A stretch of DNA of 64,000 nucleotides, from positions 18,766-82,765 of the forward strand of contig JAHIPV010000013.1 in NCBI GenBank assembly GCA_018902845.1, written 5' to 3'. The position numbers and the translations under genes were made by a program. Under the pieces are notes generated by a model. That model was not told the origin of the DNA. It saw nothing but the letters and a program-made list of their open reading frames with translations, and searched no databases. Every line of letters starts with the position of its first letter. Position 1 is the stretch's first letter. Of the stretch, positions 5,382-42,218 are shown piece by piece. Source of the DNA: Patescibacteria group bacterium (lineage in GTDB: Bacteria > Patescibacteriota > Microgenomatia > UBA12405).

Positions 5382-7160
5382 ATGCAAAATATAAAAAATA
5401 CAATAAACACAAATACACAGCCTAATCAAAGGCCACAAACCAAATTTACTCAAACTTTTAGACCAAAAACAGTTCAGAACTCTGATGCACTCAGAATTAC
5501 TTCTCTGGGTGGTTTTGGCGATGTCACTCAAAATATGTTTGTCTACGAATACGCCCCCAGGGGCGATTTTAAAAAAAGTCAAATAATTATCGTTGATTGT
5601 GGAGTTGGTTTCCCCGAAGAAGACGAGTTTGGTGTAGATCTCCAAATTCCTGATACCAAATATCTGGAAGATAAAAAAAACAGGATACTTGGTATTTTTA
5701 TTACTCACGGTCACGAAGATCATATTGGCGCTCTCCGTTTTATTCTTCCCGTCCTTGGAAAAAACATCCCTATTTACGCTCCAAGATTGGCAACCGCGTT
5801 TATACAGGCTAGATTACAAGAACATGAAATTAGGGCCAAAATACAAATCTATCAAGACAATATGCCCATGAAAGCTGGCCCCTTTTTAGTCGATCCGATT
5901 AGAGTTACTCACTCGATTCCCGATACTTTTCATTTTGCCATTAGTACTCCCATCGGTCTCATTTACCATGGATCCGATTTTAAATTCGACCTTTTTCCGC
6001 TAGATGGCAAGTATTCCGATCTTCGTCATATCGCCCGTGTTGGCAACAACAGCAACGTTCTGTGTCTTTTGTCGGATTGTCTTGGTGCTGATCACCCGGG
6101 TTATTCGCCATCCGAAAGAACCATAGCACAAAACTTTGAAAATGAGATCAAGACCGCCAAGGGTAGGGTATTTGTCACTGCTATCTCAAGCAACATTGTT
6201 CGTTGGGGTCAAGCTATAGAATATGGCAAAAGAGCCGGTCGTAAAATAGTTACCGTTGGTTTTTCTGTTGATAGGGCCATTAGTGTGGCACAAGAGCTTG
6301 GTTATATCAAACTTAACAAGTCAGATATTGTCCCCATAAACAGAATCAAAAATTTTCCCGAGAATCAACTAATCTTTTTGGCTGCTGGATTCGCTGGTCA
6401 ATCCAATTCTGCCTTAAGTAAGATGGTTATGGGAAAGCACAGAATAAAAATTAAATCCAGTGACAAAATTATTTTTTCTGCCCCTGATTATATCCCTGGC
6501 ACCTCCAGTGCTATTTTAAAGATAGTTGACCACCTTTCTAAAATGGGAGCAGAAGTAGTTTATGGGGAGGGAGAAAATATGCATGTTTCTGGTCACGGCT
6601 ATCAAAAAGAATATGCCCTGTTAGCAACCCTTCTCAACTCTAGATACTTGCTTCCAATTGGTGGAAATTACCGCCATGTCAGGGCCTATCAAGGCATGGC
6701 TCTAGATATCGGTTATTCCGCCGATCAATTTATTTCGCCAGATTCAGATGCATCGGTCACTTTTTACGCCAACGGAAAATACGATACCAACCATCACATT
6801 TCTTCAAGAAAAATACTCATCGACGGATTCGGCGTCGGCGATGTTGGAACTACAGTTCTTCGGGATAGACGGCTTTTGGCAGAAGACGGCATGCTTTCTG
6901 TGGTGCTTCTAGTTGATACAAAATCAGCCAGAATGATCAAAGAGCCTTTAGTTTTAAGCAAAGGCTTTGTCTTTATGAAAGAAAACACTCCTCTTATAAA
7001 TCAGCTTAAGCAGGAAGTAAAAAAGAAATTCTCGCAGGTAGCTGGCGATCCCATCAATCTGGATTATGTTCGCGAACAAATCCAAGGCCATTTGGAACAA
7101 ATTGTCTACAAAAAAACCGGCCGTCAGCCCATGATCCTGCCCTTGCTAGTTGAGGTATAA
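5382..7160 (+). CDS. rnj: Ribonuclease J (metallo-beta-lactamase / beta-CASP RNase)
   Basis: ITHGHEDHIGAL motif, beta-CASP region and C-terminal domain. 592 aa. Confidence 0.9.
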   Translation: MQNIKNTINTNTQPNQRPQTKFTQTFRPKTVQNSDALRITSLGGFGDVTQNMFVYEYAPRGDFKKSQIIIVDCGVGFPEEDEFGVDLQIPDTKYLEDKKNRILGIFITHGHEDHIGALRFILPVLGKNIPIYAPRLATAFIQARLQEHEIRAKIQIYQDNMPMKAGPFLVDPIRVTHSIPDTFHFAISTPIGLIYHGSDFKFDLFPLDGKYSDLRHIARVGNNSNVLCLLSDCLGADHPGYSPSERTIAQNFENEIKTAKGRVFVTAISSNIVRWGQAIEYGKRAGRKIVTVGFSVDRAISVAQELGYIKLNKSDIVPINRIKNFPENQLIFLAAGFAGQSNSALSKMVMGKHRIKIKSSDKIIFSAPDYIPGTSSAILKIVDHLSKMGAEVVYGEGENMHVSGHGYQKEYALLATLLNSRYLLPIGGNYRHVRAYQGMALDIGYSADQFISPDSDASVTFYANGKYDTNHHISSRKILIDGFGVGDVGTTVLRDRRLLAEDGMLSVVLLVDTKSARMIKEPLVLSKGFVFMKENTPLINQLKQEVKKKFSQVAGDPINLDYVREQIQGHLEQIVYKKTGRQPMILPLLVEV

Positions 7161-7210: not shown

Positions 7211-7528
7211 ATGCTGTCAACACAAAGTACCAAAAAACAAACAGATTACCTGCAAGTTCGTCTTGATTCTAAGTTAAAACATGAAGTTACTGATATCCTT
7301 TACCAGCTCGGCATGACACCTTCTCAAGCGGTAAAAATTTTGTTTAGCCAAATTAGCATGCAAAAAGCCCTCCCTCTTGATATTTCAATCCCAACTGAAA
7401 GAATAGAAATACTTTCAGACAAAACAGTAAAAGAAGTGGGGCAAGCTTTAAAAGAAATAGGAGAAGGCGAATATACAGAGATTGACATGAGTGATAAGAA
7501 ACAAGTTAAGAAATTTTTTGGTCTTTAA
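7211..7528 (+). CDS. Type II antitoxin, RelB/DinJ family
   Basis: 105 aa. LQVRLDSKLKHEVTDILYQLGMTPSQAVKILFSQISMQKALPLDISIP matches the DinJ/RelB ribbon-helix-helix antitoxin pattern. 1-nt overlap with the downstream toxin. Confidence 0.7.
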   Translation: MLSTQSTKKQTDYLQVRLDSKLKHEVTDILYQLGMTPSQAVKILFSQISMQKALPLDISIPTERIEILSDKTVKEVGQALKEIGEGEYTEIDMSDKKQVKKFFGL

Positions 7529-7830
7529 TGTTGACATTAAAACATAATCTTCGATTTACAAAGACCTATATCAGGAAATACAAAAAACTAACTAAAAACA
7601 ATAAAAAACTCAAGAAACAAATTTCTAAAACCTTAGAATTACTGTCCTCTGATCCCCGAAATCCAAGCCTAAAATCACACAAAGTATATGCAAAAGAATT
7701 TGGTTTAAGATTGAGTTCTTCGGTCTCAGCAGATCTAAGAGTAATCTGGGATTATGATCAAAACAGTCAATTGATTATTTTGATACTAACCATCGGTACT
7801 CACTCAGGCAAAAATAGGGTCTACAATTAG
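7528..7830 (+). CDS. Type II toxin, RelE/YafQ family mRNA interferase
   Basis: 100 aa with a basic N-terminus. C-terminal ..LRVIWDYDQNSQLIILILTIGTHS resembles the RelE/YafQ ..wrliY..d....l.l.rtGtHs signature. Confidence 0.7.
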   Translation: MLTLKHNLRFTKTYIRKYKKLTKNNKKLKKQISKTLELLSSDPRNPSLKSHKVYAKEFGLRLSSSVSADLRVIWDYDQNSQLIILILTIGTHSGKNRVYN

Positions 7831-7851
7831 TAATTGAGGTATAATTACTCC

Positions 7852-9564
7852 ATGCGTTATTCCAACTTATTTGGCAAAACAAAAAAAGAAACTGCTAAAC
7901 AAGCCAAATTAAAAAGTCACCAGTTTTTACTTCGCGCTGGTTTTATAAATCAAACTGCCGCCGGATTATATAGTTTTTTGCCCCTAGGTTTCAAGGTACT
8001 CAGCAAAATAGATGCAATCGTAAAACAGGAATTAGCCAAAGAAAACGTTCAGCATCTGCTAATGCCCTATGTTTCACCAGCCAGCTTGTGGCAGGAAACA
8101 GGTCGTTACGACAAGATGGATTCAGTTTTGGCCAAATTTACTTCCAAAAGAGGTCAGGATCTTGTTTTGTCTCCTACTCATGAAGAAATTATCACTGATT
8201 TAGTCAGAAAATACGTTCAATCATACAAAGATTTACCTCTCATATTAAACCACAATCAACTGAAATTTAGAGACGAAATTAGAGCTTTTGGGGGACTGGT
8301 TCGCACCAGGGAGTTTCTTATGCAAGATGCTTATACTTTTGACACCAGCGCAAAGGGACTTTCAAAAAGCTTTGACGCCGTAGTCAGAGCCTACAAAAAC
8401 ATTTTCAAACAACTTGAAATTGAGGCCGTTGAAATAGAAGCAGATAGTGGAACAATGGGTGGGTCCGATTCACACGAGTTTGTGATCATTGCTAATGTTG
8501 GCGAAGATCTGGTTTTACAATGTTCCGATTGTAACTATAAGGCCAATGTTGAAAAAGCGGAGTTTGAAAGAGAAAAAATTAATTTAGATGAAAAAATAGA
8601 AGTTTTTAAAATAATTGATCAGCCGGAGTGGGTTTGTACTATGCAAGATAATGTTAAGCATTACAGGAAACCTTTATGGCGTTATCTAAAAAACGTAGTT
8701 TACAAAGACCAAGATGAAAATATTATTATAGCTTCTATTCGCGGCGACCAAGAAGTAAATGAAGCCAAGCTAATGCAAGCTACGGGCGTTCAAAGCATAG
8801 AACCTGCCACTGATAATGACCTAAAAAATATGGGAACTAGACCCGGTTGGGTTCATTCTTGGGGACACAAAAATGTAATTTATATTGGTGATTATGGCTT
8901 AAAAATGGTCCGTAATTTTATTGGCGGTCAAAAAGAAAAAGACACTGATTCTGTCAATGTTAATTATGGTCGGGATTTTGAGTACAAATTATTGGCAGAC
9001 ATTGTCAATGCCAAGGAAAACGATTTGTGTGCTAAGTGTAAAAAAGGCAAATTAAAAGAAAAAAGAGGAATAGAAATAGCTCACGCTTTTAAATTGGGAA
9101 CTTGTTATTCAAATTCAATGAACGCAAAGTATTTGGATAAAAACGGAAAACTCCAATTAATCCACATGGGGAGTTATGGCTTTGGTGTTTCAAGAGCGGT
9201 AGCAGTTGTGGCAGAGGTACACAACGATGATAATGGTATAGTCTGGCCCAAAACTGTTACTCCTTATCATGTTCACTTGATAGTCTTGGATACATCAGAC
9301 GGAAAAATCTTTAAACAGGCCCAAAAGCTTTATGAAGATCTAAAATCACAAAACATCGACGTCTTGTTTGACGAAAGAAAAGATGTCTCTGCTGGTTCAA
9401 AATTTGCCGATGCAGATTTAATTGGTATTCCAATCAGGTTAGTTGTCAGCAAAAAAAGCCTAAAAAACGGCGGAATTGAATTTAAATTGAGAAATTCAGG
9501 AAAAATTGAAATTATAAAAATTTCAGAATTAGAAAAAAGAATCAAAGATTTTTACAAAATCTAA
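7852..9564 (+). CDS. proS: Prolyl-tRNA synthetase (bacterial type with INS editing domain)
   Basis: Class II aaRS motifs and ProRS-specific segments (FLLRAGFINQ.., SPTHEEI, RTREFLMQDAYTF). ATG 7852 chosen, preceded by GAGG; a TTG at 7834 is possible. Confidence 0.9.
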   Translation: MRYSNLFGKTKKETAKQAKLKSHQFLLRAGFINQTAAGLYSFLPLGFKVLSKIDAIVKQELAKENVQHLLMPYVSPASLWQETGRYDKMDSVLAKFTSKRGQDLVLSPTHEEIITDLVRKYVQSYKDLPLILNHNQLKFRDEIRAFGGLVRTREFLMQDAYTFDTSAKGLSKSFDAVVRAYKNIFKQLEIEAVEIEADSGTMGGSDSHEFVIIANVGEDLVLQCSDCNYKANVEKAEFEREKINLDEKIEVFKIIDQPEWVCTMQDNVKHYRKPLWRYLKNVVYKDQDENIIIASIRGDQEVNEAKLMQATGVQSIEPATDNDLKNMGTRPGWVHSWGHKNVIYIGDYGLKMVRNFIGGQKEKDTDSVNVNYGRDFEYKLLADIVNAKENDLCAKCKKGKLKEKRGIEIAHAFKLGTCYSNSMNAKYLDKNGKLQLIHMGSYGFGVSRAVAVVAEVHNDDNGIVWPKTVTPYHVHLIVLDTSDGKIFKQAQKLYEDLKSQNIDVLFDERKDVSAGSKFADADLIGIPIRLVVSKKSLKNGGIEFKLRNSGKIEIIKISELEKRIKDFYKI

Positions 9565-9620
9565 ACAGAGATCATCAACCTCCATATTTCTTATGACCAC
9601 ATCTGTTATATACTCTTTAT

Positions 9621-11711
9621 ATGGCAAAGCGACGCCGTGGGCGAAAAAAAATCAAAAATACACTGGGAATTAGGTTAAAACCTAAAACCGTCAAGTCTGT
9701 TTTTTTTATTTTCTTTTTACTTTTAACCATCATATCAATCTTTTCCTTTCTTCAGTCAACCCCTTCTTTGATTATGATTAATAAGTCTCTTATTTCCTAT
9801 TTTGGTCTTGTCTCTCTCATGCTTCCTTTTCTTTTTTTACTTTTAGCCTTTTCTTTTATCAAGGTTAAAACTCCACTTAAAGAGCCAAGCGTTTTTTTTG
9901 GTTTCCTTATTGTTTTCATCTCAATTCTGGCACTTACAAAACAAGGACTTTTTGGTAAATTTTTGTGGGAACAAGTATCTTTTCTCTTCACTCAATTTCC
10001 CGCTTTTTTAATTTTTCTAGCCACCCTTGTTGTCGGTTTTGTCGTACTTTTTGATACTTCCATTGCTCAGATCATCAAAAATGTTGGTGAAATTTTATTT
10101 CTTATCAAAAAATATACCCTTGGCCAGACTAAAAAAACAAAAAGCAAAAAAAGCAAAACGGGAGAAACCGTATATATTCAAGAAGAACCAAAAGAAGAAA
10201 AGAAAACAACCGAAGAAAACGTTCCTGTTTCAACAAAACCCGTAGAACTGATTAATCCTGCTTCTAGCAAACCACTTAGTTCCTCTTCAAATCAAATTTG
10301 GGAATATCCATCAATAGATGTTTTTGATGATAATCCTGGCAAAAAAGCGGACAGGGGAGACGTTCGCAAAAATGCCGAGATTATAGAACAAACTCTTGAT
10401 TCTTTTGGAATTACAGCTAGGGTTGCAGAAGTAAACAACAGTCCTTCGGTTACTCAGTATGCGCTGCAAGTTGCGCTAGGAACAAAATTGGCCAAAATCG
10501 TTAACCTGGGCAACGATTTAGCCATGGCATTAGCAGCTCCGGGAGGTCAAATAAGAATAGAAGCGCCAATTCCGGGTCGTTCGCTTGTCGGTATTGAGGT
10601 GCCAAACAGATCTCTTCAAATCGTTCCTGTTAGAAAAATATTGGAAGATGATGAGATCAAAAATGCTAAATCAAAAATTATAGTACCACTTGGTCTTAGT
10701 GTTTCCGGTAAGGTCCAGTTTGCTGACATTGCTCAAATGCCACACGTTCTTATAGCAGGTCAAACAGGTTCAGGGAAATCTATTTGTATTAATTCTTGGA
10801 TCAGTACTCTTTTATTTAGGGCTTCCCCTGATGAACTCAGGCTTATAATGGTTGACCCCAAAAGAGTTGAGCTCACTCCATATAATGGAATACCACATTT
10901 ACTCACTCCGGTTATCGTCGATCCCGACAAGGTCGTCTCAGCATTAAAATGGGCTGTCACCGAGATGGAAAATCGCTACAAAGTATTTGCTGAAGTTGGA
11001 GCAAAAAATATTAGCTCTTACAACGATATGGCAGGCTTCCAAAGCCTCCCCTATGTTTTAATCATTATCGACGAATTGGCAGATATAATGCTTTTTTCTC
11101 CGGCCGAAGTAGAAGATTGTATTTGTCGTATCGCTCAAATGGCCCGAGCTGTCGGCATCCATTTGATTTTGGCTACTCAAAGACCGTCTGTCGACATTTT
11201 AACCGGTCTTATTAAGGCCAATATTCCAACCCGTGTTGCATTTGCCGTTTCCTCTATGACAGACTCCAGGGTCATCTTAGACACTCCTGGGGCAGAAAAA
11301 CTTCTTGGCAGAGGAGACATGCTCTATATTCCTCCCGAGTTAGCCAAGCCACTTCGTATTCAAGGGTGTTTTGTATCAGATAAAGAAATAAAAAAACTAA
11401 TAGACCATCTCCAATCTCAAAAAAATGTTGATTACGATGACCAAATTATAAACCAGCCAATTTCTGCTGGAAGCTCAAGCAAAAATTTAGTTTCCGTAAG
11501 CGGAGAAGAAAAAGACGTAAAATTTGACGATGCCATCGCTATAATCAAAAGTAGTGGCAAGGCCTCGGCCTCTTTACTCCAAAGGCAACTCAAACTTGGC
11601 TATGCCCGTGCTGCCAGAATACTTGATCAATTGGAAGTCGCCGGTATTGTTGGTCCTGTCAATGGTTCTAAACCTCGTGAAATATTTGCGAGTAAATTGT
11701 CGGATCAGTAA
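9621..11711 (+). CDS. ftsK: DNA translocase FtsK/SpoIIIE
   Basis: N-terminal TM segments, HVLIAGQTGSGKS Walker A, IIIDELAD Walker B and C-terminal gamma wHTH domain (LLQRQLKLGYARAARILDQLEVAGIVGP). Confidence 0.9.
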   Translation: MAKRRRGRKKIKNTLGIRLKPKTVKSVFFIFFLLLTIISIFSFLQSTPSLIMINKSLISYFGLVSLMLPFLFLLLAFSFIKVKTPLKEPSVFFGFLIVFISILALTKQGLFGKFLWEQVSFLFTQFPAFLIFLATLVVGFVVLFDTSIAQIIKNVGEILFLIKKYTLGQTKKTKSKKSKTGETVYIQEEPKEEKKTTEENVPVSTKPVELINPASSKPLSSSSNQIWEYPSIDVFDDNPGKKADRGDVRKNAEIIEQTLDSFGITARVAEVNNSPSVTQYALQVALGTKLAKIVNLGNDLAMALAAPGGQIRIEAPIPGRSLVGIEVPNRSLQIVPVRKILEDDEIKNAKSKIIVPLGLSVSGKVQFADIAQMPHVLIAGQTGSGKSICINSWISTLLFRASPDELRLIMVDPKRVELTPYNGIPHLLTPVIVDPDKVVSALKWAVTEMENRYKVFAEVGAKNISSYNDMAGFQSLPYVLIIIDELADIMLFSPAEVEDCICRIAQMARAVGIHLILATQRPSVDILTGLIKANIPTRVAFAVSSMTDSRVILDTPGAEKLLGRGDMLYIPPELAKPLRIQGCFVSDKEIKKLIDHLQSQKNVDYDDQIINQPISAGSSSKNLVSVSGEEKDVKFDDAIAIIKSSGKASASLLQRQLKLGYARAARILDQLEVAGIVGPVNGSKPREIFASKLSDQ

Positions 11712-13002: not shown

Positions 13003-14790
13003 ATGACGCCACGAAAACTAAAAGACAAATTTATCGAGTTTTTTCTTTCAAAAAATCACCAAGAAATCCCATCAAGTAGCTTAGTTCCCGAAAACGACCC
13101 AACTACTCTTTTTGTTTCAGCCGGTATTCAGCCGTTAGCTCCATATTTTTTAGGCAAAAAACATCCGGTAGGCTCAAGGTTAGTTAATGTGCAGAAATGT
13201 GTTCGTACCTGTGATATTGACTTAGTAGGGGACGCTTTTCATCACACCTTTTTTGAAATGCTGGGTAACTGGTCTTTGGGAGATTATTTCAAAAAAGAGA
13301 TGATTCCCTGGAGTTTTGAATTTTTAACCAAAGAGTTAAACATCAACGCCGACCATTTATACGCTACCTGTTTTGCCGGCGACAAAGATGCGCCAAAAGA
13401 TAATGTCAGCGCAAATTTTTGGCAAAAACTTGGTATTCCCAAAAAAAGAATTCACTTTTTACCCAAAAAAGAAAACTGGTGGGGTCCTGCTGGTACTACT
13501 GGTCCTTGTGGTCCAGATAGCGAAATGTTTGTTGATATTAGTCCCAACTCTCCGCCAATAGATTTCAAAAAAGGTTGTGATTCCGGTCGTTTTAGAGAAA
13601 TTTGGAACGACGTATTTATCCAATATCTAAAAAACGAAAAAGGAAAATTTGAAAAACTTGTTCAAAACAACATTGATACGGGTATGGGAGTGGAAAGGAA
13701 CATTGCTATATTAAATAGTTTTACTGATCACTACTTAACCGTTATCTGGCAACCAATTATCAAAAAAATAGAAGAAATCTCTGGGGAAAAATATACAACT
13801 GACAATATCCGTCCAATGCGCATTATTGCCGATCATCTTCGTTCTGCCGTTTTTATTATTGCAGATGGTATGCAGCCATCGAACAAAGAAGCTGGTTATG
13901 TTTTACGACGCCTTATCAGAAGGGCAGTCAGACAAGCAAAACTAATTGGCATTGAAAATAATTTTACAGAAAAAATCGGACAAACTGTACTGAATAATCA
14001 GAACAATTATGCCGGCATTTATCCGGAATTAAATCAAAACGCAGATTTAATTTTAGCTACTTTAGAAAATGAAGAAAACAAATTTAGAAAAACACTAAAC
14101 AAAGGCTTGCGTCAAATTCAAAAAATGATATCTTCTGATAAAAAGATAACCGGAAAAGATGCTTTTGATTTATATCAAAACTATGGCTTCCCCTGTGAGA
14201 TGACCAAAGAAGAACTGGAAAAACATGGACTAAAATTTAGTTCAAAAGAATACAAAGAATTTTGTTCGTGTAATTCAGACCACCAAGCAAAGTCTCGCAC
14301 TTTATCAGTAGGAAAATTTAAAAGCGGCTTAGCAGATAATTCAGAAATTATCACTAAATATCACACAACTACTCATCTTCTTAATTCAGCCTTGCGCCAG
14401 GTATTGGGTGATCATGTTTGGCAAGCTGGGTCAAACATCACAAAAGAAAGACTACGTTTTGATTTCGTTCACCAAGACAAATTAACTGACAAAGAAAAAC
14501 AACAAACAGAAGATCTGGTTAATGAAAAAATAAAGAAAGCCCTTCCTGTTTCCTGTCAGACAATGAATATTACTGACGTCAAAAATAACAGTTCAATTGT
14601 TGCAATTTTTGGAGCTAAATATCCTGACAAAGTAACTGTTTATACAATCGGAAATCTCAAAAAATCTTTTTCTAAAGAAGTTTGTACCGGTCCTCATGTA
14701 AAAAATACTTCAGAATTGGGCAGTTTTTGTATTCTTAAAGAAGAATCATGCGGTTCCGGCCGTCGCCGCATCTACGCCAAGCTAATGTAA
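13003..14790 (+). CDS. alaS: Alanyl-tRNA synthetase, shortened form (595 aa; lacks C-Ala domain and beta-barrel linker)
   Basis: Catalytic motifs (FVSAGIQP.., HHTFFEMLGNWSLGDYFK, GPCGPDSEMF) and editing motifs (HTTTHLL at about 454-458, CTGPHV at about 567). About 280 aa shorter than canonical AlaRS. Confidence 0.9.
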   Translation: MTPRKLKDKFIEFFLSKNHQEIPSSSLVPENDPTTLFVSAGIQPLAPYFLGKKHPVGSRLVNVQKCVRTCDIDLVGDAFHHTFFEMLGNWSLGDYFKKEMIPWSFEFLTKELNINADHLYATCFAGDKDAPKDNVSANFWQKLGIPKKRIHFLPKKENWWGPAGTTGPCGPDSEMFVDISPNSPPIDFKKGCDSGRFREIWNDVFIQYLKNEKGKFEKLVQNNIDTGMGVERNIAILNSFTDHYLTVIWQPIIKKIEEISGEKYTTDNIRPMRIIADHLRSAVFIIADGMQPSNKEAGYVLRRLIRRAVRQAKLIGIENNFTEKIGQTVLNNQNNYAGIYPELNQNADLILATLENEENKFRKTLNKGLRQIQKMISSDKKITGKDAFDLYQNYGFPCEMTKEELEKHGLKFSSKEYKEFCSCNSDHQAKSRTLSVGKFKSGLADNSEIITKYHTTTHLLNSALRQVLGDHVWQAGSNITKERLRFDFVHQDKLTDKEKQQTEDLVNEKIKKALPVSCQTMNITDVKNNSSIVAIFGAKYPDKVTVYTIGNLKKSFSKEVCTGPHVKNTSELGSFCILKEESCGSGRRRIYAKLM

Positions 14791-14796
14791 CCAATC

Positions 14797-15033
14797 TTAA
14801 TCACTATCAGAAGCAACTTCATCCCGCACTATTTCCACTCGAACTCCAGTTCCTTGACCTATTGTAATCCCCCTGCCGGGAACATCGGTGACGATCTCAA
14901 GCGACAGAAGGTCCTCTCTCGCCTCTTTCGCTCTGTGGACCCTGATTGTTACAGTCTCTCCTCTGGTAATACCCTGAACACTCATATAAACATCTCTGGC
15001 AACCTCTTTAGCTGTTTGGTTATCTACTTTCAT
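14797..15033 (-). CDS. Small hypothetical protein (78 aa), GC-rich relative to surroundings, antisense to neighbours
   Basis: Start MKVDNQ.. lies 12 nt downstream of a TATAAT -10 (minus strand, + coords 15046-15051). Gene sequence about 50% GC. No family recognised. Confidence 0.4.
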   Translation of the reverse strand: MKVDNQTAKEVARDVYMSVQGITRGETVTIRVHRAKEAREDLLSLEIVTDVPGRGITIGQGTGVRVEIVRDEVASDSD

Positions 15034-15194
15034 ACCTATAACATCATTATAATACAAATCGAACAGCAGCTCAAGCACTGGCTAGATTTGTTTTGTTTTA
15101 GATACTTTTTTGTCTCTCGTAATAATATAGCAGGATTATTTGGAAGTTTAGATATTAGATTTCAAATCTACTTACAATGTTGTATTCTTAATTA

Positions 15195-17249
15195 ATGAAA
15201 CAAAAGAATACAAACAGGTTTTGGCTTCTTAATATCAAAGATACACATCTCTCGGTTTCTTTAGTTTTTGTTTCAGAAGTCATGTCCGATGGAATTCTCT
15301 CAAGCCATAAGCAGGAGTGGAAAGAAGAAGATTTCATAAATTCTGTCGATATTTGCGTTTCTGATTGTTTAAGGCAGGATTCTTCCCCAGAAATTGACCA
15401 AACAGACTCGATCGCCTTTATTCTTCCACCTGACTGGGTCGCCAGCGACGGAAAGATAATCGATGATAAACAAAAATTAATCAAATCTCTTTGTAAAAAG
15501 ATGGACCTTAAACCAATGGGTTTTCTGGCAAGCAACGAGGCTATAGTTGAAGAATTAAATCATAAAGAAGGATCTCCTGTTAGCCTAATTTTAATCAACA
15601 TAGAAAACAATATTGCTGACTTTTCTATAGTTTATTCGGGAAAAATAAAAAACAATTTTAAAAAAACAATTTTAGAAAAATCATCTTTGCCTGCTTTGAT
15701 TGAAAATAGCCTTAGAGAATTAAATTTTGATTTTGTTCTGCCACCACAAATTCTGCTTTGGGGAGATAAGGATTTTGATTTTAGCCAAGATCTCAAAAAT
15801 TATGCCTGGACAGATAAAGAAGGAAAAAATATCTTTACCCATTTTCCCAAAATTGATTTTTACGACACTGAACAAATAAATCAATTTTTTATAAAAATCA
15901 TTACAAAACAAATTGGGTTAGACCTAGAAACCGTCAAAACCCCAAAAAACGACACTTTAAGCCAGCCTCGTTTTTCCGATTTAAAAGAAGTTGATCCCCT
16001 AAGCCTAGGTTTTGACAAAGACCACCATTCTTTACCTCCAACAAAAGAATTTTCTGAAAAAATCAAAAAACCAAAGTTTAAGTTAAAACTTTGGTTTCCT
16101 ACTTTTCCAAAATTAAAATTTCCAAAAATTTTCTCACGTTTTTCCGTTTTATTATTATTTTTCTTTTTTACAACAATTTTTCTTTTTTGGCTTTTTTCTT
16201 ATAAAAGTGTCTTGACCGTTTTTGTTACACCATATAAGTTTGATCAAAAATTGCCGTCTACTCTTGACACCTCGGCAAAAGATTTTGATCCAAATGAAAA
16301 AATTATCCCTGCCCAAGAAATAGAGATAAAATTTTCCACTTCTGCCACCGTAAAAACCACTGGACAGAAATTAGTAGGGGAAAGGGCTAGGGGGGAATTG
16401 CTTGTTTTTAACAAAACCGATCAGGACAAAACTCTACCGGCAGGTTCTATTTTAGTGGACGCCAATCAGCTGGAATTTAAACTATTAGATGATGTCAAAG
16501 TATCGTCCAGCAGTCCGGACCTCGATCAGGGAATAATAACTCTTGGTCAGGGCAAAGTAATGGCCTCTGCCGTTGATATCGGTCCGGCTGGTAATTTAAA
16601 CAAAGATACTCTTTTAACATTCAAAGAATTTCCTTCAAGCGATTTAGTTGTCAAGACAAATCAAGTTTTTGCCGGAGGAAGTAGTCGGCAGGTTAGTAGT
16701 GTTGGCAGTGAAGATAGAAAAGAGGTAAAGCAAAAAATAGACGAAAAAGTTCAAGAAATTTTACAACAAAAGAAAGACGAAAGCATCGATAAGCTTAACA
16801 ATTTACTGCCCGGAACCACATTTATAGATCAAGAAAGGATAAGTTACGATCGTGAAATAGGCGAAGAGACCGACGAACTATCGGCCTCGGTTGATATCAC
16901 CATGCATATTTTTTCAATAAATGCAAAAGTAAAAAACGACATTATAAAATACATGCTTCAGTCAAATACCGATCCGTCTACCCTTGATCTGGAAAATAGC
17001 CAATTTCAATTTGATTACAAAGATAAAAATCTTTTATTGACTGGGACATCACTGCCTAAAATAAACACTACAAACTTAGCAAAAAAATTAGTTTTAAAAA
17101 ATCCAAATAAAATTACAGAAACACTTAAGTCAGAATCCACTCGTGTATATGATTTTAATCTGCAATCCAAGCCAGCCATTTTTAAAAATTTTCCTATATT
17201 ACCAGCAAGATCAGATATGATCTATTTAGAAATTAAAACCGAAGAATAA
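15195..17249 (+). CDS. Hypothetical bitopic membrane protein (684 aa: cytoplasmic N-domain, TM at about aa 320-345, large extracytoplasmic C-domain)
   Basis: One strongly hydrophobic segment (LLLFFFFTTIFLFWLF). N-domain is weakly reminiscent of the FtsA/PilM fold. Immediately followed by a sortase gene. Confidence 0.6.
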   Translation: MKQKNTNRFWLLNIKDTHLSVSLVFVSEVMSDGILSSHKQEWKEEDFINSVDICVSDCLRQDSSPEIDQTDSIAFILPPDWVASDGKIIDDKQKLIKSLCKKMDLKPMGFLASNEAIVEELNHKEGSPVSLILINIENNIADFSIVYSGKIKNNFKKTILEKSSLPALIENSLRELNFDFVLPPQILLWGDKDFDFSQDLKNYAWTDKEGKNIFTHFPKIDFYDTEQINQFFIKIITKQIGLDLETVKTPKNDTLSQPRFSDLKEVDPLSLGFDKDHHSLPPTKEFSEKIKKPKFKLKLWFPTFPKLKFPKIFSRFSVLLLFFFFTTIFLFWLFSYKSVLTVFVTPYKFDQKLPSTLDTSAKDFDPNEKIIPAQEIEIKFSTSATVKTTGQKLVGERARGELLVFNKTDQDKTLPAGSILVDANQLEFKLLDDVKVSSSSPDLDQGIITLGQGKVMASAVDIGPAGNLNKDTLLTFKEFPSSDLVVKTNQVFAGGSSRQVSSVGSEDRKEVKQKIDEKVQEILQQKKDESIDKLNNLLPGTTFIDQERISYDREIGEETDELSASVDITMHIFSINAKVKNDIIKYMLQSNTDPSTLDLENSQFQFDYKDKNLLLTGTSLPKINTTNLAKKLVLKNPNKITETLKSESTRVYDFNLQSKPAIFKNFPILPARSDMIYLEIKTEE

Positions 17250-17250
17250 C

Positions 17251-17994
17251 TTGTCATATCTATACGTTAAGAAAATTACTCCCAAGAGTCAAAAACGGAA
17301 AAAAAAACATCACCCCAAAATAACAAAAAAAATGTTATTAGCTATTTCTTTTTTTATTTTTGGTTCTTTATTGCTTTTTTCAGTTATATTTCCAATACTT
17401 AATTTTCAGTTAAAATACTCCTCTCGTTTTAACCCGATTAGTTCCCCTCTTTCGGCAAAATTTTATAACAAAAGTTCTAGCATTTTGGGAGAGGTAAACA
17501 CTGATTACACTCAACTTAATAATTGGTTCACAAAAAATTCCAACAGCAAAGATATTGATTCCGCACCTGAACATGGTAATCCTAGCTCTTATGAACTTTC
17601 TATACCAATCCTTAAAATTGAAAATGCTAATGTGGTTGTTGGTGGAACTGACTTGAAAAAAAGTCTAATACAGTATCCACAAACAGCCTTACCCGGTCAA
17701 ATCGGTAATGCCGTAATTTTTGGCCATTCGGTCTTACCTCAATTTTTTAATCCAAAATCATATGTAACCATTTTTTCAACTCTTTTTAAGCTAAAGCAGG
17801 GAGACGAAATTTATGCTACTTTTGATAACATAAAATACAAATATTTAGTTGAAGAAATGTTTGAAATTCTACCGACAGATCTTTCCATATTAGAACAAAG
17901 ATTTGACGGTCGTTATCTAACTATTGTGACTTGTAGTCCGCCAGGAACCTATATTCGTCGCTTAATAATCAAGGCCAAAATAGTAGATATTTAA
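17251..17994 (+). CDS. Sortase-family transpeptidase
   Basis: N-terminal TM anchor, catalytic His region (IGNAVIFGHS) and TLxTC motif (LTIVTCSPPG). Confidence 0.8.
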   Translation: MSYLYVKKITPKSQKRKKKHHPKITKKMLLAISFFIFGSLLLFSVIFPILNFQLKYSSRFNPISSPLSAKFYNKSSSILGEVNTDYTQLNNWFTKNSNSKDIDSAPEHGNPSSYELSIPILKIENANVVVGGTDLKKSLIQYPQTALPGQIGNAVIFGHSVLPQFFNPKSYVTIFSTLFKLKQGDEIYATFDNIKYKYLVEEMFEILPTDLSILEQRFDGRYLTIVTCSPPGTYIRRLIIKAKIVDI

Positions 17995-18001
17995 TTATCC
18001 A

Positions 18002-18373
18002 ATGAATTATCTAGCAATTGATTATGGAACAAAAAGAATTGGCACTGCCATTTCGATTATGGGAGTTATTAGTCCACTAAAAACTTTCCCTAACAATACT
18101 GTTTTTTTTAATTCTCTTGAAAAAATCACCAACCAGAATGAAATAAAAAAAATTTTTGTTGGTATTTGCCAGGGCTCCTTTGCCGTGCAAACCAAATCCT
18201 TTGTTGCCAAACTAAAACTTATGCTAAAATTACCAGTAGAGCTAGTGGAGGAATCAGTTTCAACTATCGAAGCAGATGAACTTTATAAACAGCTTAATAA
18301 AAAAAGGAAAAATTATAAAGAAAAAATAGATTCCATAAGCGCAGCAATAATATTAAGACGAGCAATTAATTAA
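18002..18373 (+). CDS. ruvX: Holliday-junction resolvase-like RuvX/YqgF
   Basis: MNYLAIDYGTKRIGTAIS.. RNase H-fold YqgF signature. Classic neighbour of alaS and mltG. Confidence 0.85.
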   Translation: MNYLAIDYGTKRIGTAISIMGVISPLKTFPNNTVFFNSLEKITNQNEIKKIFVGICQGSFAVQTKSFVAKLKLMLKLPVELVEESVSTIEADELYKQLNKKRKNYKEKIDSISAAIILRRAIN

Positions 18374-18407: not shown

Positions 18408-18605
18408 ATGTTTAAAAATCTAATCTCTCCAGTTCAAGCTTGGTTACTTTCACAGGGTCGTTGTGTTGGTTGTAGCATGCCACTTTCCAAGGGGAAAGAA
18501 AAAAAGGTTCGTGGCAAAATCACAACTACATGTAAGTGTGGGCGTATTTTTATTCACGATAAAAAGAACAACAAATACCGACGCGCTCTTTTCAGTGAAA
18601 TATAA
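18408..18605 (+). CDS. Small zinc-ribbon protein (65 aa)
   Basis: C-x2-C ... C-x-C arrangement (CVGC..TCKCG). Sits where the small yrzB-like gene occurs in the alaS-ruvX-mltG cluster of other bacteria. Confidence 0.45.
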   Translation: MFKNLISPVQAWLLSQGRCVGCSMPLSKGKEKKVRGKITTTCKCGRIFIHDKKNNKYRRALFSEI

Positions 18606-18614
18606 AAAGCTTTA

Positions 18615-19577
18615 ATGAAAAAAATTTTTCTTTTTCTACTGGTTTTTTTACTTGTATCATTTTTTTGTGTTTTACTGTATTTTTATGTCGCTTCTCAATC
18701 GCATTCTTCCGATGATTCAAAAATTCCTTTTGTTATCAACAGGGGAGACGGTTTGAAATCTATCAGCCAAAGGTTAAAAGATAACAACCTGATTAAAGAT
18801 CGGTTAGTGTTTATTGTCAGTGCTCATGTATTAGGATTAAATGACAAGCTTCAGGCTGGCAACTTTCAGCTTTCTTCCAATATGACTTCAAATCAAATAA
18901 TTTATCGCTTATCAAGTGGTGGTAATAACGATTATTGGGTTAAACTGGTAGAAGGTTGGAGAAATGAAGAAATAGCCACCTATTTTCAACAAAAAAATAT
19001 TTTTGATCCAAAATATTTTCTTATTCAGAACGATCTTCAGCAAGGATATATTTTTCCCGACAGTTATTTAGTCCCAATAGAGACAAATACGGATGATTTT
19101 TTACAAATAGTTTCAAAGAATTTTAATAAAAAATTGCAACAAGCCTCACAGGACCCAACCATCAGTCTTTCACCCCAAGAAAGTATAATTCTTGCCTCTA
19201 TTTTGGAACGTGAAGCTAGAACTTTAAAATCCAAACAGGAAATTGCCGGGATTTTATTAAATCGACTTAGTATTAACATGGCTCTTCAGGTTGACGCCAC
19301 CGTTCAGTATGCCAGAGATTCTGGCCTACCCAAACCAGAAGAATATTGGAAACCGATTAAAAAAACAGATTTACAGGTCAACTCCCCATACAACACTTAT
19401 ATATATACCAACCTACCACCCTCTCCCATTTGCAACCCAGGCTATGACTCTCTGTACGCCTCTTTTCATCCGATCGAATCGGATTATCTTTATTACATCA
19501 CAGGAAAAGACGGAAACATGTACTACGCCAAAACACTGGAAGAACATAACATCAACATCGCCAACTATCTCAGATAA
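18615..19577 (+). CDS. mltG: Endolytic murein transglycosylase MltG (YceG family)
   Basis: N-terminal TM, LysM-like region and YceG catalytic region (..LASILEREAR.., QVDATVQYA, NSPYNTYIYTNLPPSPICNPG). Confidence 0.85.
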   Translation: MKKIFLFLLVFLLVSFFCVLLYFYVASQSHSSDDSKIPFVINRGDGLKSISQRLKDNNLIKDRLVFIVSAHVLGLNDKLQAGNFQLSSNMTSNQIIYRLSSGGNNDYWVKLVEGWRNEEIATYFQQKNIFDPKYFLIQNDLQQGYIFPDSYLVPIETNTDDFLQIVSKNFNKKLQQASQDPTISLSPQESIILASILEREARTLKSKQEIAGILLNRLSINMALQVDATVQYARDSGLPKPEEYWKPIKKTDLQVNSPYNTYIYTNLPPSPICNPGYDSLYASFHPIESDYLYYITGKDGNMYYAKTLEEHNINIANYLR

Positions 19578-29395: not shown

Positions 29396-30838
29396 ATGTC
29401 CCTTTTTACAAAGCCCAAAACAGTTTTCTGGCCTAAAAAGAATTCTCTGGAAATTTATTTTGACAAAAAAGAACAAAATCATTTCACTTTTGATATTAAT
29501 CTTTGGGAAGAAATTTCAGAATCAAACTTAACTGTCCTTAAAAACTTTTTCAATCAAAACAAAATCAAACAAGTCGATTTGCTCGTACCAAACAGGGTCG
29601 CTGTCAACAAATCTTTTATTTATGATTCCAAAATAGACAGCATTGACAAAAATGAACTAGTTGCTTTAGCCAAAGATACGGTTGAATTCAAGATTTATCC
29701 TGATTTTTTAACATCAAAACTCTTTAATCGTGGTGAAAAAACCATTATACAAACAACAATTTATGACAAAAGCAAACTATTGGTATTGAGAAATAATTTA
29801 TCTAGACTTCAATTAAAACTAAAAAAGATTATTTCTATTTCTTCTGCTATCTCATCGTTAATTTCTTCATTTTATCAAAAGAAATATTTTTTAATTTACC
29901 AGACCGACATTTCAGAATTTCTTTGCTTATTGGCAAAAAATAAGTCAGTTTACCTTAGTGTTTCAATAAAAAATATTTCAGCTGAAATACAAAAAAACAT
30001 TAATTATTCCAAGCTTTATTTTTCCTCAACGGTCGATAAGCTGTTTTTACCAAAAAACCTAGACACCAAAGACACACCTCTGGATAATTTTGAAAAAACA
30101 ATCTTACAAGAATCAAAAATAAGTCAAGATTTCAAAAAAGCATCTAATTTTCCACTACCCATCGTCCCGTTCTTTGTAAAAAAATTTACTTTTGACAAAA
30201 CTGGTATAATAAAACATATGCTAGAAGACAACCCCACCATCCAAACAGTTAATGATAGTCCTAAAAAAAACACCACGTCGATCATTTTAGTTTTTATCGC
30301 CACCATTTCCATTGTATCTGCTATTTTGTGGATTCTTCTAAACAAAAATAGTGAGAAAAATTCCGAATCTCTATCTCCAAATCAAGAGGATGAAAATAGG
30401 CTTTCACCGTCTCCCACCTTACTTATCACTCCAACACCGGAAACCAAACAGGTCGAAGTAGACAAAGAAAGTAAAATACAGGTTCTGAATGCCACCGAAA
30501 TTAACGGTCAAGCTGCCACCCTCAAAAAAGACCTGGTCGAACTCGGTTTTGATAACATTGCGGTTGGAAATAGCAACGATGAATTAACTGTCAATACGGT
30601 AAACTACAAAAAATCCCTCGGAGAAATATCAAATTATTTCATTAGTAATTTGGTATCTTTTTCGACGGCGGATTTTAATGATAGCCTAGACGAAGACAGC
30701 ACCTACGATATGGTTTTTATAATTGCTACTGACTTATCAAAATCAAATCAAGACATTGATGAAGATATAACAGAGACAGAAACAGAAACGGAAACCCCAA
30801 TTTTAACTCCAACAGAATCGGCAGACTTGATTGAGTAA
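29396..30838 (+). CDS. Bitopic membrane protein: cytoplasmic N-domain (FtsA/PilM-like?), TM, extracytoplasmic LytR_C-type domain, acidic TETETE tail
   Basis: TM at about aa 295-318. C-terminal KIQVLNATEINGQAATLKKDLVELGFDNIAVGN..VNYKK..DMVFIIATD matches the LytR C-terminal (cell-envelope-related) domain. Inserted between rpsG and fusA. Confidence 0.6.
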   Translation: MSLFTKPKTVFWPKKNSLEIYFDKKEQNHFTFDINLWEEISESNLTVLKNFFNQNKIKQVDLLVPNRVAVNKSFIYDSKIDSIDKNELVALAKDTVEFKIYPDFLTSKLFNRGEKTIIQTTIYDKSKLLVLRNNLSRLQLKLKKIISISSAISSLISSFYQKKYFLIYQTDISEFLCLLAKNKSVYLSVSIKNISAEIQKNINYSKLYFSSTVDKLFLPKNLDTKDTPLDNFEKTILQESKISQDFKKASNFPLPIVPFFVKKFTFDKTGIIKHMLEDNPTIQTVNDSPKKNTTSIILVFIATISIVSAILWILLNKNSEKNSESLSPNQEDENRLSPSPTLLITPTPETKQVEVDKESKIQVLNATEINGQAATLKKDLVELGFDNIAVGNSNDELTVNTVNYKKSLGEISNYFISNLVSFSTADFNDSLDEDSTYDMVFIIATDLSKSNQDIDEDITETETETETPILTPTESADLIE

Positions 30839-39097: not shown

Positions 39098-39117
39098 CAA
39101 TTATTTATAAATTATTT

Positions 39118-39149
39118 GGAAATTTAGATTTTAAATTTTAGATTTAATT
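39118..39149. repeat. Dispersed repeat family B copy 1 (ggaaatttagattttaaattttagatttaatt), ends 3 nt before rpsC ATG
   Basis: Near-identical copies at 41999, 49410, 59613. Confidence 0.7.
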
Positions 39150-39152
39150 AAT

Positions 39153-39791
39153 ATGGGACAAAAAGTTAATCCTATCGGTTTTAGAATGGGAAAAATCGAC
39201 AATGCACCGCCTTGTCAGTCTTCCTGGTTTGCTTCTCTAAAAAATTATGCATCCTTTCTTTTAGAAGACAAAAAAATCAGAGATTATGTTCAAAAAAAAT
39301 GCTACACCGCCGGTTTGGTTTCTACCAAAATACAAAGATTTAACAAACGCATAAAAATTACACTTGTTGTTAGTCGTCCCGGCATAGTCATTGGTCGCGG
39401 AGGTAGTGAACTGGAGCAAACCAAAAAAGAATTAATACAAATCACCAAGCTTCCGTCTGACAAGAATTTGGATATACAGGTAGAGGAATTTAAAATTCCA
39501 GAATTATCATCGAAGTTAGTAGCAGAAAAAATTGCTTATCAGTTAACAAAAAGAATGCCTTATCGACGCATAGTTTTATCTGCAATCGAAAGGGCCATGA
39601 GTTCAGGAGCACAGGGAGTTAAAATCGTTCTTTCGGGCAGAATAAACGGTGCCGAAATTAGCCGTCGGGAAAAGTTTTCTCAAGGTAAAGTTCCCTTAAG
39701 TACCCTAAGATCAAGAATTGATTATTATGAATGTCCCTCCCTTACTCGTTCCGGCTATATTGGAGTTAAGGTTTTTATTTGTCTGGGATAA
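39153..39791 (+). CDS. rpsC: 30S ribosomal protein S3
   Basis: MGQKVNPIGFR.., KH domain, ..GVKVFICLG C-terminus. Confidence 0.93.
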   Translation: MGQKVNPIGFRMGKIDNAPPCQSSWFASLKNYASFLLEDKKIRDYVQKKCYTAGLVSTKIQRFNKRIKITLVVSRPGIVIGRGGSELEQTKKELIQITKLPSDKNLDIQVEEFKIPELSSKLVAEKIAYQLTKRMPYRRIVLSAIERAMSSGAQGVKIVLSGRINGAEISRREKFSQGKVPLSTLRSRIDYYECPSLTRSGYIGVKVFICLG

Positions 39792-41990: not shown

Positions 41991-41998
41991 TTTTATTT

Positions 41999-42029
41999 GG
42001 AAATTTAGATTTTAAATTTGTGATTTATC
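41999..42029. repeat. Dispersed repeat family B copy 2, ends 3 nt before rpsN ATG
   Basis: ggaaatttagattttaaatttgtgatttatc. Confidence 0.7.
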
Positions 42030-42032
42030 AAT

Positions 42033-42218
42033 ATGGCCAATAAAGCAAAAATAGCAAGAGAAAATAAAAAACTAAGGTTTAAAACCCGTTACCATAACAG
42101 ATGTTCCTTGTGTGGCAGACCTCGTGGTTTTATCAGATTTTTTGGTCTTTGTAGACTATGTTTTCGTGAATTAGTTCACAAGAGCTTATTACCTGGAGTC
42201 AAAAAATCCAGCTGGTAA
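42033..42218 (+). CDS. rpsN: 30S ribosomal protein S14 type Z (zinc-binding)
   Basis: 61 aa, CSLCGR...CRLCFRE C4 motif. Confidence 0.93.

Follow-up and report, generated by a model that had tools for sequence, protein, structure and literature searches.

Does the DNA that separates alaS from ruvX in a genome of the Patescibacteria represent an insertion, or does it belong to the neighbourhood in which it stands? The question is raised by a window of 64 kb (the whole stretch analysed, 64,000 nucleotides of contig JAHIPV010000013.1; coordinates below are positions within it), where three genes lie between these two: a small antisense open reading frame (ORF), a gene for a 684-aa membrane protein and a sortase gene. 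The original prediction took the three together as a 3.2-kb insertion into a conserved alaS-ruvX-mltG string. Comparison with relatives gives a different answer. The large gene and the sortase gene form a conserved core block (70 of 74 and 75 of 78 related loci; see below) with GC content (guanine plus cytosine) like that of their neighbours, and the insertion reading fails because this is the outcome that had been named beforehand as telling against it; insertion-like behaviour is seen only for the small antisense gene, within about 395 bp (14781-15175), and not for the large gene and the sortase. We hold with high confidence, as one joint statement, that the pair is by its sequence relationships an ancient, vertically inherited module across the Microgenomates (GTDB class Microgenomatia) of the Candidate Phyla Radiation (CPR)/Patescibacteria, nearly universal in its order, and that the 684-aa protein is modelled correctly as an actin-like domain inside the cell, a linker, a transmembrane helix and a Baseplate_J-type barrel outside.

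The comparison rests on 83 related loci, three of them long contigs reached via protein homologues and 80 from a scan of GTDB (one genome per species, with A2, a sub-alignment of the 684-aa protein family, as query; 126 relatives, 80 loci kept). The GTDB loci represent Shapiro-, Gottesman-, Ames-, Davies- and Woesebacteria, together with unnamed Microgenomates. Neighbours were tallied by tblastn, the denominators being the evaluable loci. alaS precedes the large gene, both on one strand, in 70 of 74; the sortase gene is directly 3′ of the large gene in 75 of 78; and mltG follows within 5 kb downstream in 64 of 65. The less constant member is ruvX, found downstream in 35 of 65, and a 65-aa Cys-rich ORF that lies between ruvX and mltG in the window has a counterpart at the same position in 45 of 65. 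All three long contigs show the order alaS, ~700-aa gene, sortase, ruvX, mltG, and in two of them (L001 and L002) a 65-aa ORF is called between the last two. In one ruvX-negative locus, L020, a 419-aa ORF at 8748-10007 replaces ruvX, and the large gene-sortase pair is retained; about two dozen other ruvX-negative loci share the ~1.5 kb spacing of L020 from the sortase to the 65-aa ORF. That 419-aa ORF contains KHSTGGVAG and is nucleoside/AMP phosphorylase-like by eye, as read from the sequence without a family scan. Asked of its parts, the recent-islet question has two answers: 15195-17994 is at the same site in nearly all relatives and has host-like GC, whereas 14781-15175 is absent or replaced in relatives and has atypical GC.

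The features of the locus, with gene order confirmed by an ORF scan and Pfam, are as follows.

13003-14790, plus strand: alaS, a short (595-aa) alanyl-tRNA synthetase (Pfam tRNA-synt_2c, E 1.8e-128, plus tRNA_SAD), the upstream anchor of the conserved block
14781-15175, no strand: strain-variable spacer of 395 bp, defined by comparison with the related contig L086
14797-15033, minus strand: 78-aa orphan ORF (93 aa if it starts at the GTG at 15078; NCBI MBU4210291.1, hypothetical protein)
15046-15074, minus strand: promoter-like site TTGAGC-17-TATAAT, matching the consensus at 10 of 12 positions, just 5′ of the ATG at 15033
15135-15180, plus strand: promoter-like motif of ~45 nt, of the type TTGGAA-17-TAGATT, 5′ of the 684-aa gene
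15195-17249, plus strand: gene for the 684-aa bitopic membrane protein (NCBI MBU4210292.1, 'hypothetical protein')
15210-15914, plus strand: minimal actin-like (ASKHA) domain, aa 6-240, predicted cytoplasmic (Foldseek on the AlphaFold2 model)
15921-16121, plus strand: disordered linker of variable length, aa 243-309 (predicted local distance difference test score, pLDDT, below 50)
16125-16199, plus strand: single transmembrane helix, aa 311-335 (model helix and hydrophobic run SVLLLFFFFTTIFLFWLF)
16203-17246, plus strand: predicted extracytoplasmic domain, aa 337-684, with the barrel, aa 392-496, at nt 16368-16682
17251-17994, plus strand: membrane-anchored sortase, 247 aa from the TTG at 17251 (NCBI also lists a 220-aa version from the ATG at 17332)
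18002-18373, plus strand: ruvX, YqgF-family nuclease (Pfam RuvX, E 8.6e-24)
18408-18605, plus strand: 65-aa Cys-rich ORF (CxxC...CxC) between ruvX and mltG, conserved by tblastn
18615-19577, plus strand: mltG, YceG-like endolytic transglycosylase (Pfam YceG, E 7.7e-71), the downstream anchor

The gene calls that underlay the original prediction are sound. ORF scan and Pfam agree on the three ORFs and their limits, and the small antisense ORF is indeed GC-rich, at 46% compared with 31-36% for its neighbours (window mean 36%, 684-aa gene 34%, sortase 32%). The DNA of the region is 100% identical in two independent Logan assemblies, and identical proteins are present at NCBI from four metagenome-assembled genomes (MAGs) named 'Patescibacteria group bacterium'. 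The large ORF, which might have split on re-sequencing, does not: it is a single real gene, because the two Logan assemblies are identical and its homologues are full-length at 663-763 aa. The 65-aa ORF, a putative zinc ribbon, matches no family; its name at NCBI, 'integrator complex subunit 13', is evidently spurious.

Within the 3.2 kb, then, only 14781-15175 appears from these alignments to be lineage-specific. On both sides of it (14660-14780 and 15176-16087) the window shares 98% identity with L086, a contig from a JGI metagenome, in which the 395 bp are replaced by 457 bp without similarity to them in either orientation, the best local scores being within the range of shuffled controls. 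The L086 spacer bears a different ORF, of 73 aa on the plus strand, which matches no family and does not resemble the 78-aa ORF. In the closest species alaS and the large gene are a mere ~30-110 bp apart; L009 and L010 have 1.6 kb and 5 kb of accessory ORFs at this junction. From these three observations the junction is an operon boundary at which variable DNA is tolerated and has repeatedly been taken up, and it may be a dedicated hotspot at which small orphan genes are swapped between near-identical strains. No mobility gene or bracketing repeat was found around this segment or around the three genes. An exact 12-nt direct repeat, TTGTATTCTTAA, at 14727-14738 (the 3′ end of alaS) and 15180-15191 (before the start codon of the 684-aa gene), has a chance expectation of ~0.1 by rough estimate and was considered as a target duplication. 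It was rejected: the left copy is 42 nt inside the conserved end of alaS and the alternative allele has the two copies as well (L086:68-79 and 583-594), so that the repeat fails to bracket the variable segment.

Does the spacer carry a gene at all? It is possible, if rather doubtful in our estimation, that the 78-aa ORF is none, and that the GC-rich 0.4-kb segment is a non-coding remnant or a regulatory spacer. The ORF has no homologues: a word-indexed search of 5.8 billion clusters returned only itself, exhaustive phmmer against 1.84 billion representative proteins found no homologue, there is no match in Pfam, NCBIfam, PHROG, PADLOC, PDB or Rfam, and it is present in 0 of the 83 related loci. 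The one other phmmer match, P0028, was set aside as compositional; it is a low-complexity protein of perfect Big_9/cadherin-like (immunoglobulin-type) repeats, the score being summed over five of them. The single-sequence AlphaFold2 model has a pLDDT of 57, uninformative and too low for a fold search; no clear Shine-Dalgarno sequence precedes either candidate start (ATG 15033, GTG 15078); and the sister strain replaces the entire segment. Against this, 93 codons stand open in DNA of 45% GC, with a chance of ~0.5% per frame (a rough estimate), and the gradient of GC over the three codon positions (0.61/0.41/0.38) is typical of coding sequence. The 10/12 promoter-like site stands just upstream of the ATG; the PGAP, JGI and Logan gene callers all predict the ORF; and the alternative allele likewise has one compact ORF of similar size. 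Nor does anything point to an RNA gene, a candidate that was examined and dropped when Rfam (at gathering thresholds over the whole window, at permissive E over 14650-15300 and L086) and ARAGORN, which looks for tRNA genes, returned nothing credible. The codon-position gradient and the promoter-like site together favour a real gene with a short leader, and the position of that site, a consensus match alone, favours the ATG start with a very short leader. PADLOC matched none of the three genes and PHROGs did not match the small ORF; a function in defence or of phage origin was rejected.

The promoter-like motif before the 684-aa gene is one of three copies of ~45 nt in the window (15135-15180, 39111-39155 and 41993-42037), with the sequence ATTATTTGGAA(A/G)TTTAGAT.TTA.ATTT..GAT.TA, which reads as a -35 of TTGGAA, 17 nt and a -10 of TAGATT. 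At the second and third copies an ATG follows ~8 nt later; it marks the end of the copy and opens ribosomal-protein-like ORFs starting MGQKVNPI and MANKAKIA. Where the 684-aa gene follows, by contrast, no more than a mini-ORF of four codons begins at the aligned ATG. The counterpart of 15135-15180 in L086 is in part similar, with TTGGAA/TTTAAATTT. As judged at the two ribosomal-protein copies, the motif may be a promoter for leaderless mRNAs.

What the conserved pair encodes is the next question. Together with 25 homologues that match it over the full length (663-763 aa, 19-36% identity), the 684-aa protein belongs to a Microgenomates-wide family of ~660-760 aa. The alignment of these 26 sequences (A1, of which A2 is a subset) was the input for AlphaFold2; used as a profile query it added a single protein, P0029, a fragment of 473 aa, and nothing more distantly related. 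It contains 11 invariant and 20 near-invariant residues, and these, with the class-wide position of the gene, argue for purifying selection. The model has a mean pLDDT of 82 and agrees with the sequence on one transmembrane helix (aa 311-335) and a beta-rich C-terminal half, as the original prediction had described them.

In that model aa 6-240 form a compact two-lobed alpha/beta domain. An actin-like fold had been suspected within aa 1-320, of FtsA or PilM type; the fold was recovered, and membership in the PilM or FtsA families specifically was not. A Foldseek search of PDB placed EutJ (3h1q) first, with a TM-score (template modelling score) by target of 0.54 and a root-mean-square deviation (rmsd) of 4.7 Å, followed by CoaX (2h3g/3bf3, 0.50-0.51), BT_3980 (3hrg, 0.49) and PilM (5eq6/5eou, 0.41-0.44); PPX/GppA and ParM were matched as well, and the ASKHA matches have E 1e-7 to 1e-5. 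The scores of 0.49-0.54 are normalised to targets of 247-272 aa and become ~0.68 when rescaled to the 240-aa domain. Two RNase-H-like beta-beta-beta-alpha-beta-alpha-beta-alpha subdomains can be followed in the order of secondary structure in the model and in the fold matches. The phosphate-1 (DxG) and phosphate-2 (DxGGG) motifs, in contrast, are degenerate. At the corresponding strands, identified from sequence pattern without residue-level superposition, the window protein has LLNIKDTH and ILINIENNIAD; the family consensus is EI..E.VK and ILLG.W, with the canonical positions held by N/I/E or L/G and not invariant. Because these phosphate-binding motifs are not conserved in the family, the domain is probably a pseudo-ATPase, a scaffold independent of nucleotide. 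It carries an invariant motif of the family's own, F-L/T-H-F-P-K-I-E/D, at aa 214-221.

The linker that follows holds a conserved L-G-F motif (nt 16005-16013), whose F273 is shared by 90% or more of the members; G272 reaches the same level within the A2 subset. Its juxtamembrane stretch is basic and Pro-rich, with 9 K/R to 2 D/E in aa 285-312; the positive charge on the N-terminal side of the transmembrane helix predicts an N-in/C-out orientation.

The half of the protein that would then lie outside contains a barrel of Baseplate_J type, an assignment to which four independent routes lead: Pfam, the family profile with TRI-2, PHROG_6 and Foldseek. Pfam Baseplate_J (PF04865) matches the window protein at E 5e-4, with 19.9 bits against a gathering score of 21.1, hence just below it; the same model is matched by 19 of the 26 family members at E up to 0.01 (best 2.7e-6), over profile positions 20-110 of 255, that is, over the barrel only. 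The family profile matches diffocin TRI-2 (8v3w_E, CD1371) at E 0.0017, and PHROG_6, 'baseplate wedge subunit', matches aa 392-495 at E 4.2e-6. Foldseek returned baseplate chains of phi812, Mu, A-1(L), XM1 and diffocin, solved wedge proteins among them at probability 1.00 and E 3.5e-8 to 1e-5 (9euf_I, 9ki1, 8kea, 8v3w, 7kh1), together with many 'Baseplate J like' models of BFVD; model and chain matches have E 1e-8 to 1e-5 in alignments of 330-360 columns to phage proteins of ~350 aa. The barrel alone superposes with an rmsd of 3.8 Å over 106-116 columns, and on sequence and model together only aa 392-496 can securely be called homologous to Baseplate_J. NCBI names one family member 'baseplate J/gp47 family protein'. 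No gpI/gp7-like partner, spike, tube or sheath gene was found in the window region or the 83 loci, and because no contractile-tail gene set is nearby the barrel is read as a homologous domain and not as a component of a baseplate.

The sequence LPAGS, noted earlier as present in a protein without a C-terminal LPxTG, is there at aa 414-418, and the C-terminal signal is indeed missing. As a sortase motif LPAGS does not hold up: the family keeps just G417 and T/S418 of it, and its counterpart in TRI-2 is the equivalent barrel strand. By alignment it appears to be a structural motif of the barrel and no sortase site. The C-terminus of the protein is a folded beta-strand (aa 676-681) without a hydrophobic tail; 12-16 residues before the end there is a conserved L-P-x4-N-I element, with P670 and I676 in at least 90% of members.

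The identification of the second gene as a sortase stands. The product matches Pfam Sortase (PF04203) at E 9.5e-22, with 77.5 bits (cutoff 26.6), and TIGR01076 at 52.3 bits (cutoff 39.35); the NCBIfam models of classes C, D, E, F and GN give 14-50 bits against cutoffs of 140-166, and by them it is assignable to no known class. H159 (in GHS; 17725-17727), C228 (in VTCSPPG; 17932-17934) and R237 (17959-17961) are each at least 99% conserved in 76 orthologues, for which reason the enzyme appears catalytically intact and under selection as an active transpeptidase. A transmembrane segment at ~aa 29-50 is preceded by a cytoplasmic Y-L-Y-V-K at aa 3-7 (nt 17257-17271), and 45 of the 76 orthologues, the window's included, begin with a peptide of the form M-x-x-Y-x-Y/F-V/I-K. 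Because this conserved peptide lies upstream of the ATG at 17332, the TTG at 17251 is the likelier start. That start is 1 nt after the stop of the large gene; the sortase start is within -20 to +10 nt of the large-gene stop in 53 of 75 loci, commonly with a 4-nt overlap, a spacing that suggests translational coupling. Apparent fusions of the two genes in L035 and L047 were artefacts, a masked gap of 100 N in one and an overlap of high-scoring segment pairs in the other.

Many of the 700-aa family members outside the window's clade (P0008-P0022) start with M-x-L-P-F-F/L-K-K, which the window's clade is without; in the few examples at hand its presence seems to track whether the sortases of a clade have or lack YxYVK. 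Proteins of ~250-290 aa are encoded on the minus strand just upstream of alaS in L035 (3025-3858), L053 (3029-3913), L060 (3070-3939), L076 (2957-3829) and seven similar loci; they end in a Pro/Thr-rich linker, a W-W-S/T-x-E-K-like element, a hydrophobic segment and a short basic tail, have no LPxTG, and might be candidates for a non-canonical sorting signal.

One way to bring these pieces together, and the explanation that we think probable overall, is a vertically inherited envelope module, consisting of a transmembrane scaffold and a housekeeping sortase, with a 395-bp strain-variable spacer beside it. That the large protein organises the sortase as a scaffold is a tentative proposal. The scaffold would oligomerise on both sides of the membrane, as we infer from self-assembly being a property both of actin-like domains and of baseplate wedge proteins; it would recruit or position the sortase, perhaps by docking of the N-terminal YxYVK peptide onto the actin-like domain, in analogy to the docking of PilN onto PilM; the baseplate-type ectodomain would serve as a platform outside the cell, within the wall or upon it; and surface proteins would become anchored to the wall at defined sites. 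Assembly, recruitment, docking and the role in wall-anchoring are all put forward here as conjecture. In its fullest form the proposal is an envelope-spanning machine, in which a domesticated baseplate-wedge ring or platform and a nucleotide-independent actin-like scaffold would capture the sortase via YxYVK and direct where surface or host-attachment proteins are anchored; as a whole we consider this unlikely.

Several observations weigh against the module as drawn. Three of 78 loci (L037, L066, L078) keep the large gene without an adjacent sortase; the partnership therefore is not obligatory. Many of the related loci (L006, L010, L012, L014-L016 and others) are titled 'uncultured Gammaproteobacteria', in dozens of third-party annotation (TPA) MAGs, some of them Pseudomonadales; we judge these to be mislabelled Microgenomates MAGs because their gene order and short alaS match those of named Microgenomates. 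The link between the two proteins is adjacency and coupling-like gene spacing, nothing more direct. The surroundings (ftsK, rodZ, alaS, ruvX, mltG, rpoBC) include envelope and division genes, but as they form a general housekeeping string they say little on function. The ectodomain beyond the barrel superposes poorly on phage J proteins (TM-score 0.2-0.24, rmsd 25-40 Å); the YxYVK peptide is absent from 31 of 76 sortases; and a scan of the window's ORFs and of ~1 Mb of related loci showed no LPxTG-like C-terminal sorting signal.

A second perspective supposes that the 684-aa protein is a component of a PilM-PilN or GspL-type platform, serving a type IV pilus or a machine like that of type II secretion, and that it neighbours the sortase incidentally. 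Its topology, an actin-like cytoplasmic domain, one transmembrane helix and a domain outside, is GspL-like; PilM is among the fold matches, one family member weakly matches Pfam PAP_PilO, and type IV pilus systems with GspL-like parts are widespread in CPR (PMC6744442). The details fit less well. PilM reaches TM-scores of only 0.41-0.44 where EutJ, CoaX and BT_3980 reach 0.49-0.54; Pfam PilM_2, GspL and PilN are not matched; and the ectodomain is Baseplate_J-like, not of the ferredoxin-like fold of PilN, PilO and GspL. Neither the window nor any of the 83 loci has pilB, pilC, pilin or secretion genes nearby, and the tight coupling is to a sortase. We regard such a platform as improbable.

It has also to be asked whether the large protein is the catalytic partner of the sortase, either a non-canonical substrate or the acceptor nucleophile to which cargo is ligated. 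The constant and tightly spaced gene pairing would suit this, as would the conserved L-P-x4-N-I element near the C-terminus and the fact that no canonical substrate is visible nearby. The protein nevertheless has no LPxTG-like motif with a hydrophobic segment and a basic tail behind it. With N-in/C-out topology, a cut in the ectodomain would leave behind the part anchored in the membrane, opposite to canonical sorting; the family does not conserve LPAGS as a motif, and the LP element near the C-terminus adjoins the final predicted beta-strand (aa 676-681) of a folded domain. This too seems a poor prospect.

An insertion of all three genes, recently and horizontally acquired so as to split a contiguous alaS-ruvX-mltG, would explain why genes that are adjacent in many bacteria are apart here, and the small ORF is compositionally distinct; we think it very improbable, as the pair keeps its position in 70-75 of 74-78 loci, over at least five Microgenomates candidate phyla and at only 20-36% protein identity, has GC like its neighbours, and is accompanied by neither mobility genes nor flanking repeats, the sole repeat being the 12-nt one, which fails to enclose the variable part. 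Any insertion of the pair would date to the ancestor of the class. Hardly credible, despite the Baseplate_J/PHROG_6 similarity, the baseplate fold matches and the NCBI name 'baseplate J/gp47 family protein' of one member, is a prophage or tailocin baseplate remnant without a cellular role: no locus has other tail, sheath, tube or spike genes, the domain is fused to a transmembrane helix and an actin-like domain, and the gene keeps a class-wide position with 11 invariant and 20 near-invariant residues.

The vertically inherited module has consequences for a large uncultured branch of CPR with tiny genomes, in which the genes retained are likely to matter. A sortase family is CPR-enriched and near-ubiquitous in Microgenomates (Meheust et al. 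2019, PMC6744442), where many enriched membrane families are without annotation (same source); a paper on a complete Microgenomates genome notes only the presence of a sortase. Literature searches (baseplate J with Patescibacteria or sortase; Microgenomatia with sortase) gave no account of the partner protein or the gene pairing. The CPR Pam pilus system (bioRxiv 10.64898/2026.03.03.709456) was considered and rejected, having a different gene context and locus and no involvement of sortase. A near-universal sortase is now tied to one unannotated ~700-aa protein inside the core alaS/ruvX/mltG/rpoBC string, which offers a testable handle on how these cells build their surface, presumably the site of host contact. 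If the envelope-spanning machine were true, it would show a sortase organised in a new way, and a phage baseplate protein exapted, as is rare, as a core surface component of the cell. Correction of the insertion reading has in turn revealed a small site for strain-variable cassettes between flanks that are 98% identical.

Elsewhere in the window, a RelB antitoxin/ParE-YafQ-like toxin pair (7211-7830) lies between RNase J (5382-7160) and proS (7834-9564). RNase J and proS are directly adjacent in L001, and a Y1-transposase-like gene lies between them in L002; the pair looks, by this comparison, like another small accessory insertion, again into a spacer between operons of this core string. Between rpsL/rpsG-like genes and fusA, a 480-aa ORF (29396-30838) with a hydrophobic segment at ~aa 295-314 and a C-terminal LytR_C match (E 1e-6) is predicted to be another unannotated bitopic envelope protein within the core translation gene string. 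As a paralogue of the 684-aa protein it was rejected, having no similarity to it.

Among known systems, the module reads as a variant on a bitopic actin-like scaffold with a housekeeping sortase, in a combination of domains that we have not found described. The sortase resembles the housekeeping enzymes (classes A and E; the CPR family of PMC6744442) in its N-terminal anchor, sortase fold, His-Cys-Arg and TLxTC-like 'VTCxPPG', and differs from them in fitting no class-specific NCBIfam model and in having a fixed upstream partner gene and an N-terminal cytoplasmic peptide. With the Baseplate J/gp47/T4 gp6-type wedge proteins the barrel of the large protein shares sequence, fold and the signature G-x4-G-x-V-x-I-x-N ... 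P-A-G-T ... I-G-x3-N-L ... F-S-G-G, and the ectodomain, at 348 aa, has the length of a whole J-like protein; unlike them, it is encoded by a cellular core gene free of tail genes, stands outside on a transmembrane anchor and is fused to an actin-like domain. As in GspL and PilM-PilN, one transmembrane helix connects a cytoplasmic ASKHA domain with a domain outside the membrane; in GspL, too, the nucleotide-binding motifs are degenerate. The PilM-PilN pair offers a further likeness, in that the neighbouring bitopic protein, here the sortase with its YxYVK, has a short conserved cytoplasmic N-terminal peptide, and PilM 5eou is among the fold matches. The differences are that the 684-aa protein has no match to these sequence families, is closest in fold to EutJ, CoaX and BT_3980 and has a Baseplate_J-like ectodomain, and that no pilus or secretion genes adjoin it, the coupled partner being a sortase. 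The neighbourhood itself has the backbone genes, order and strand of that in Bacillus subtilis, where the order is alaS-yrzL-yrrK-yrzB-yrrL, down to a small ORF between ruvX and mltG; to this the Microgenomates add two fixed genes, and in them ruvX is the less constant member (35 of 65).

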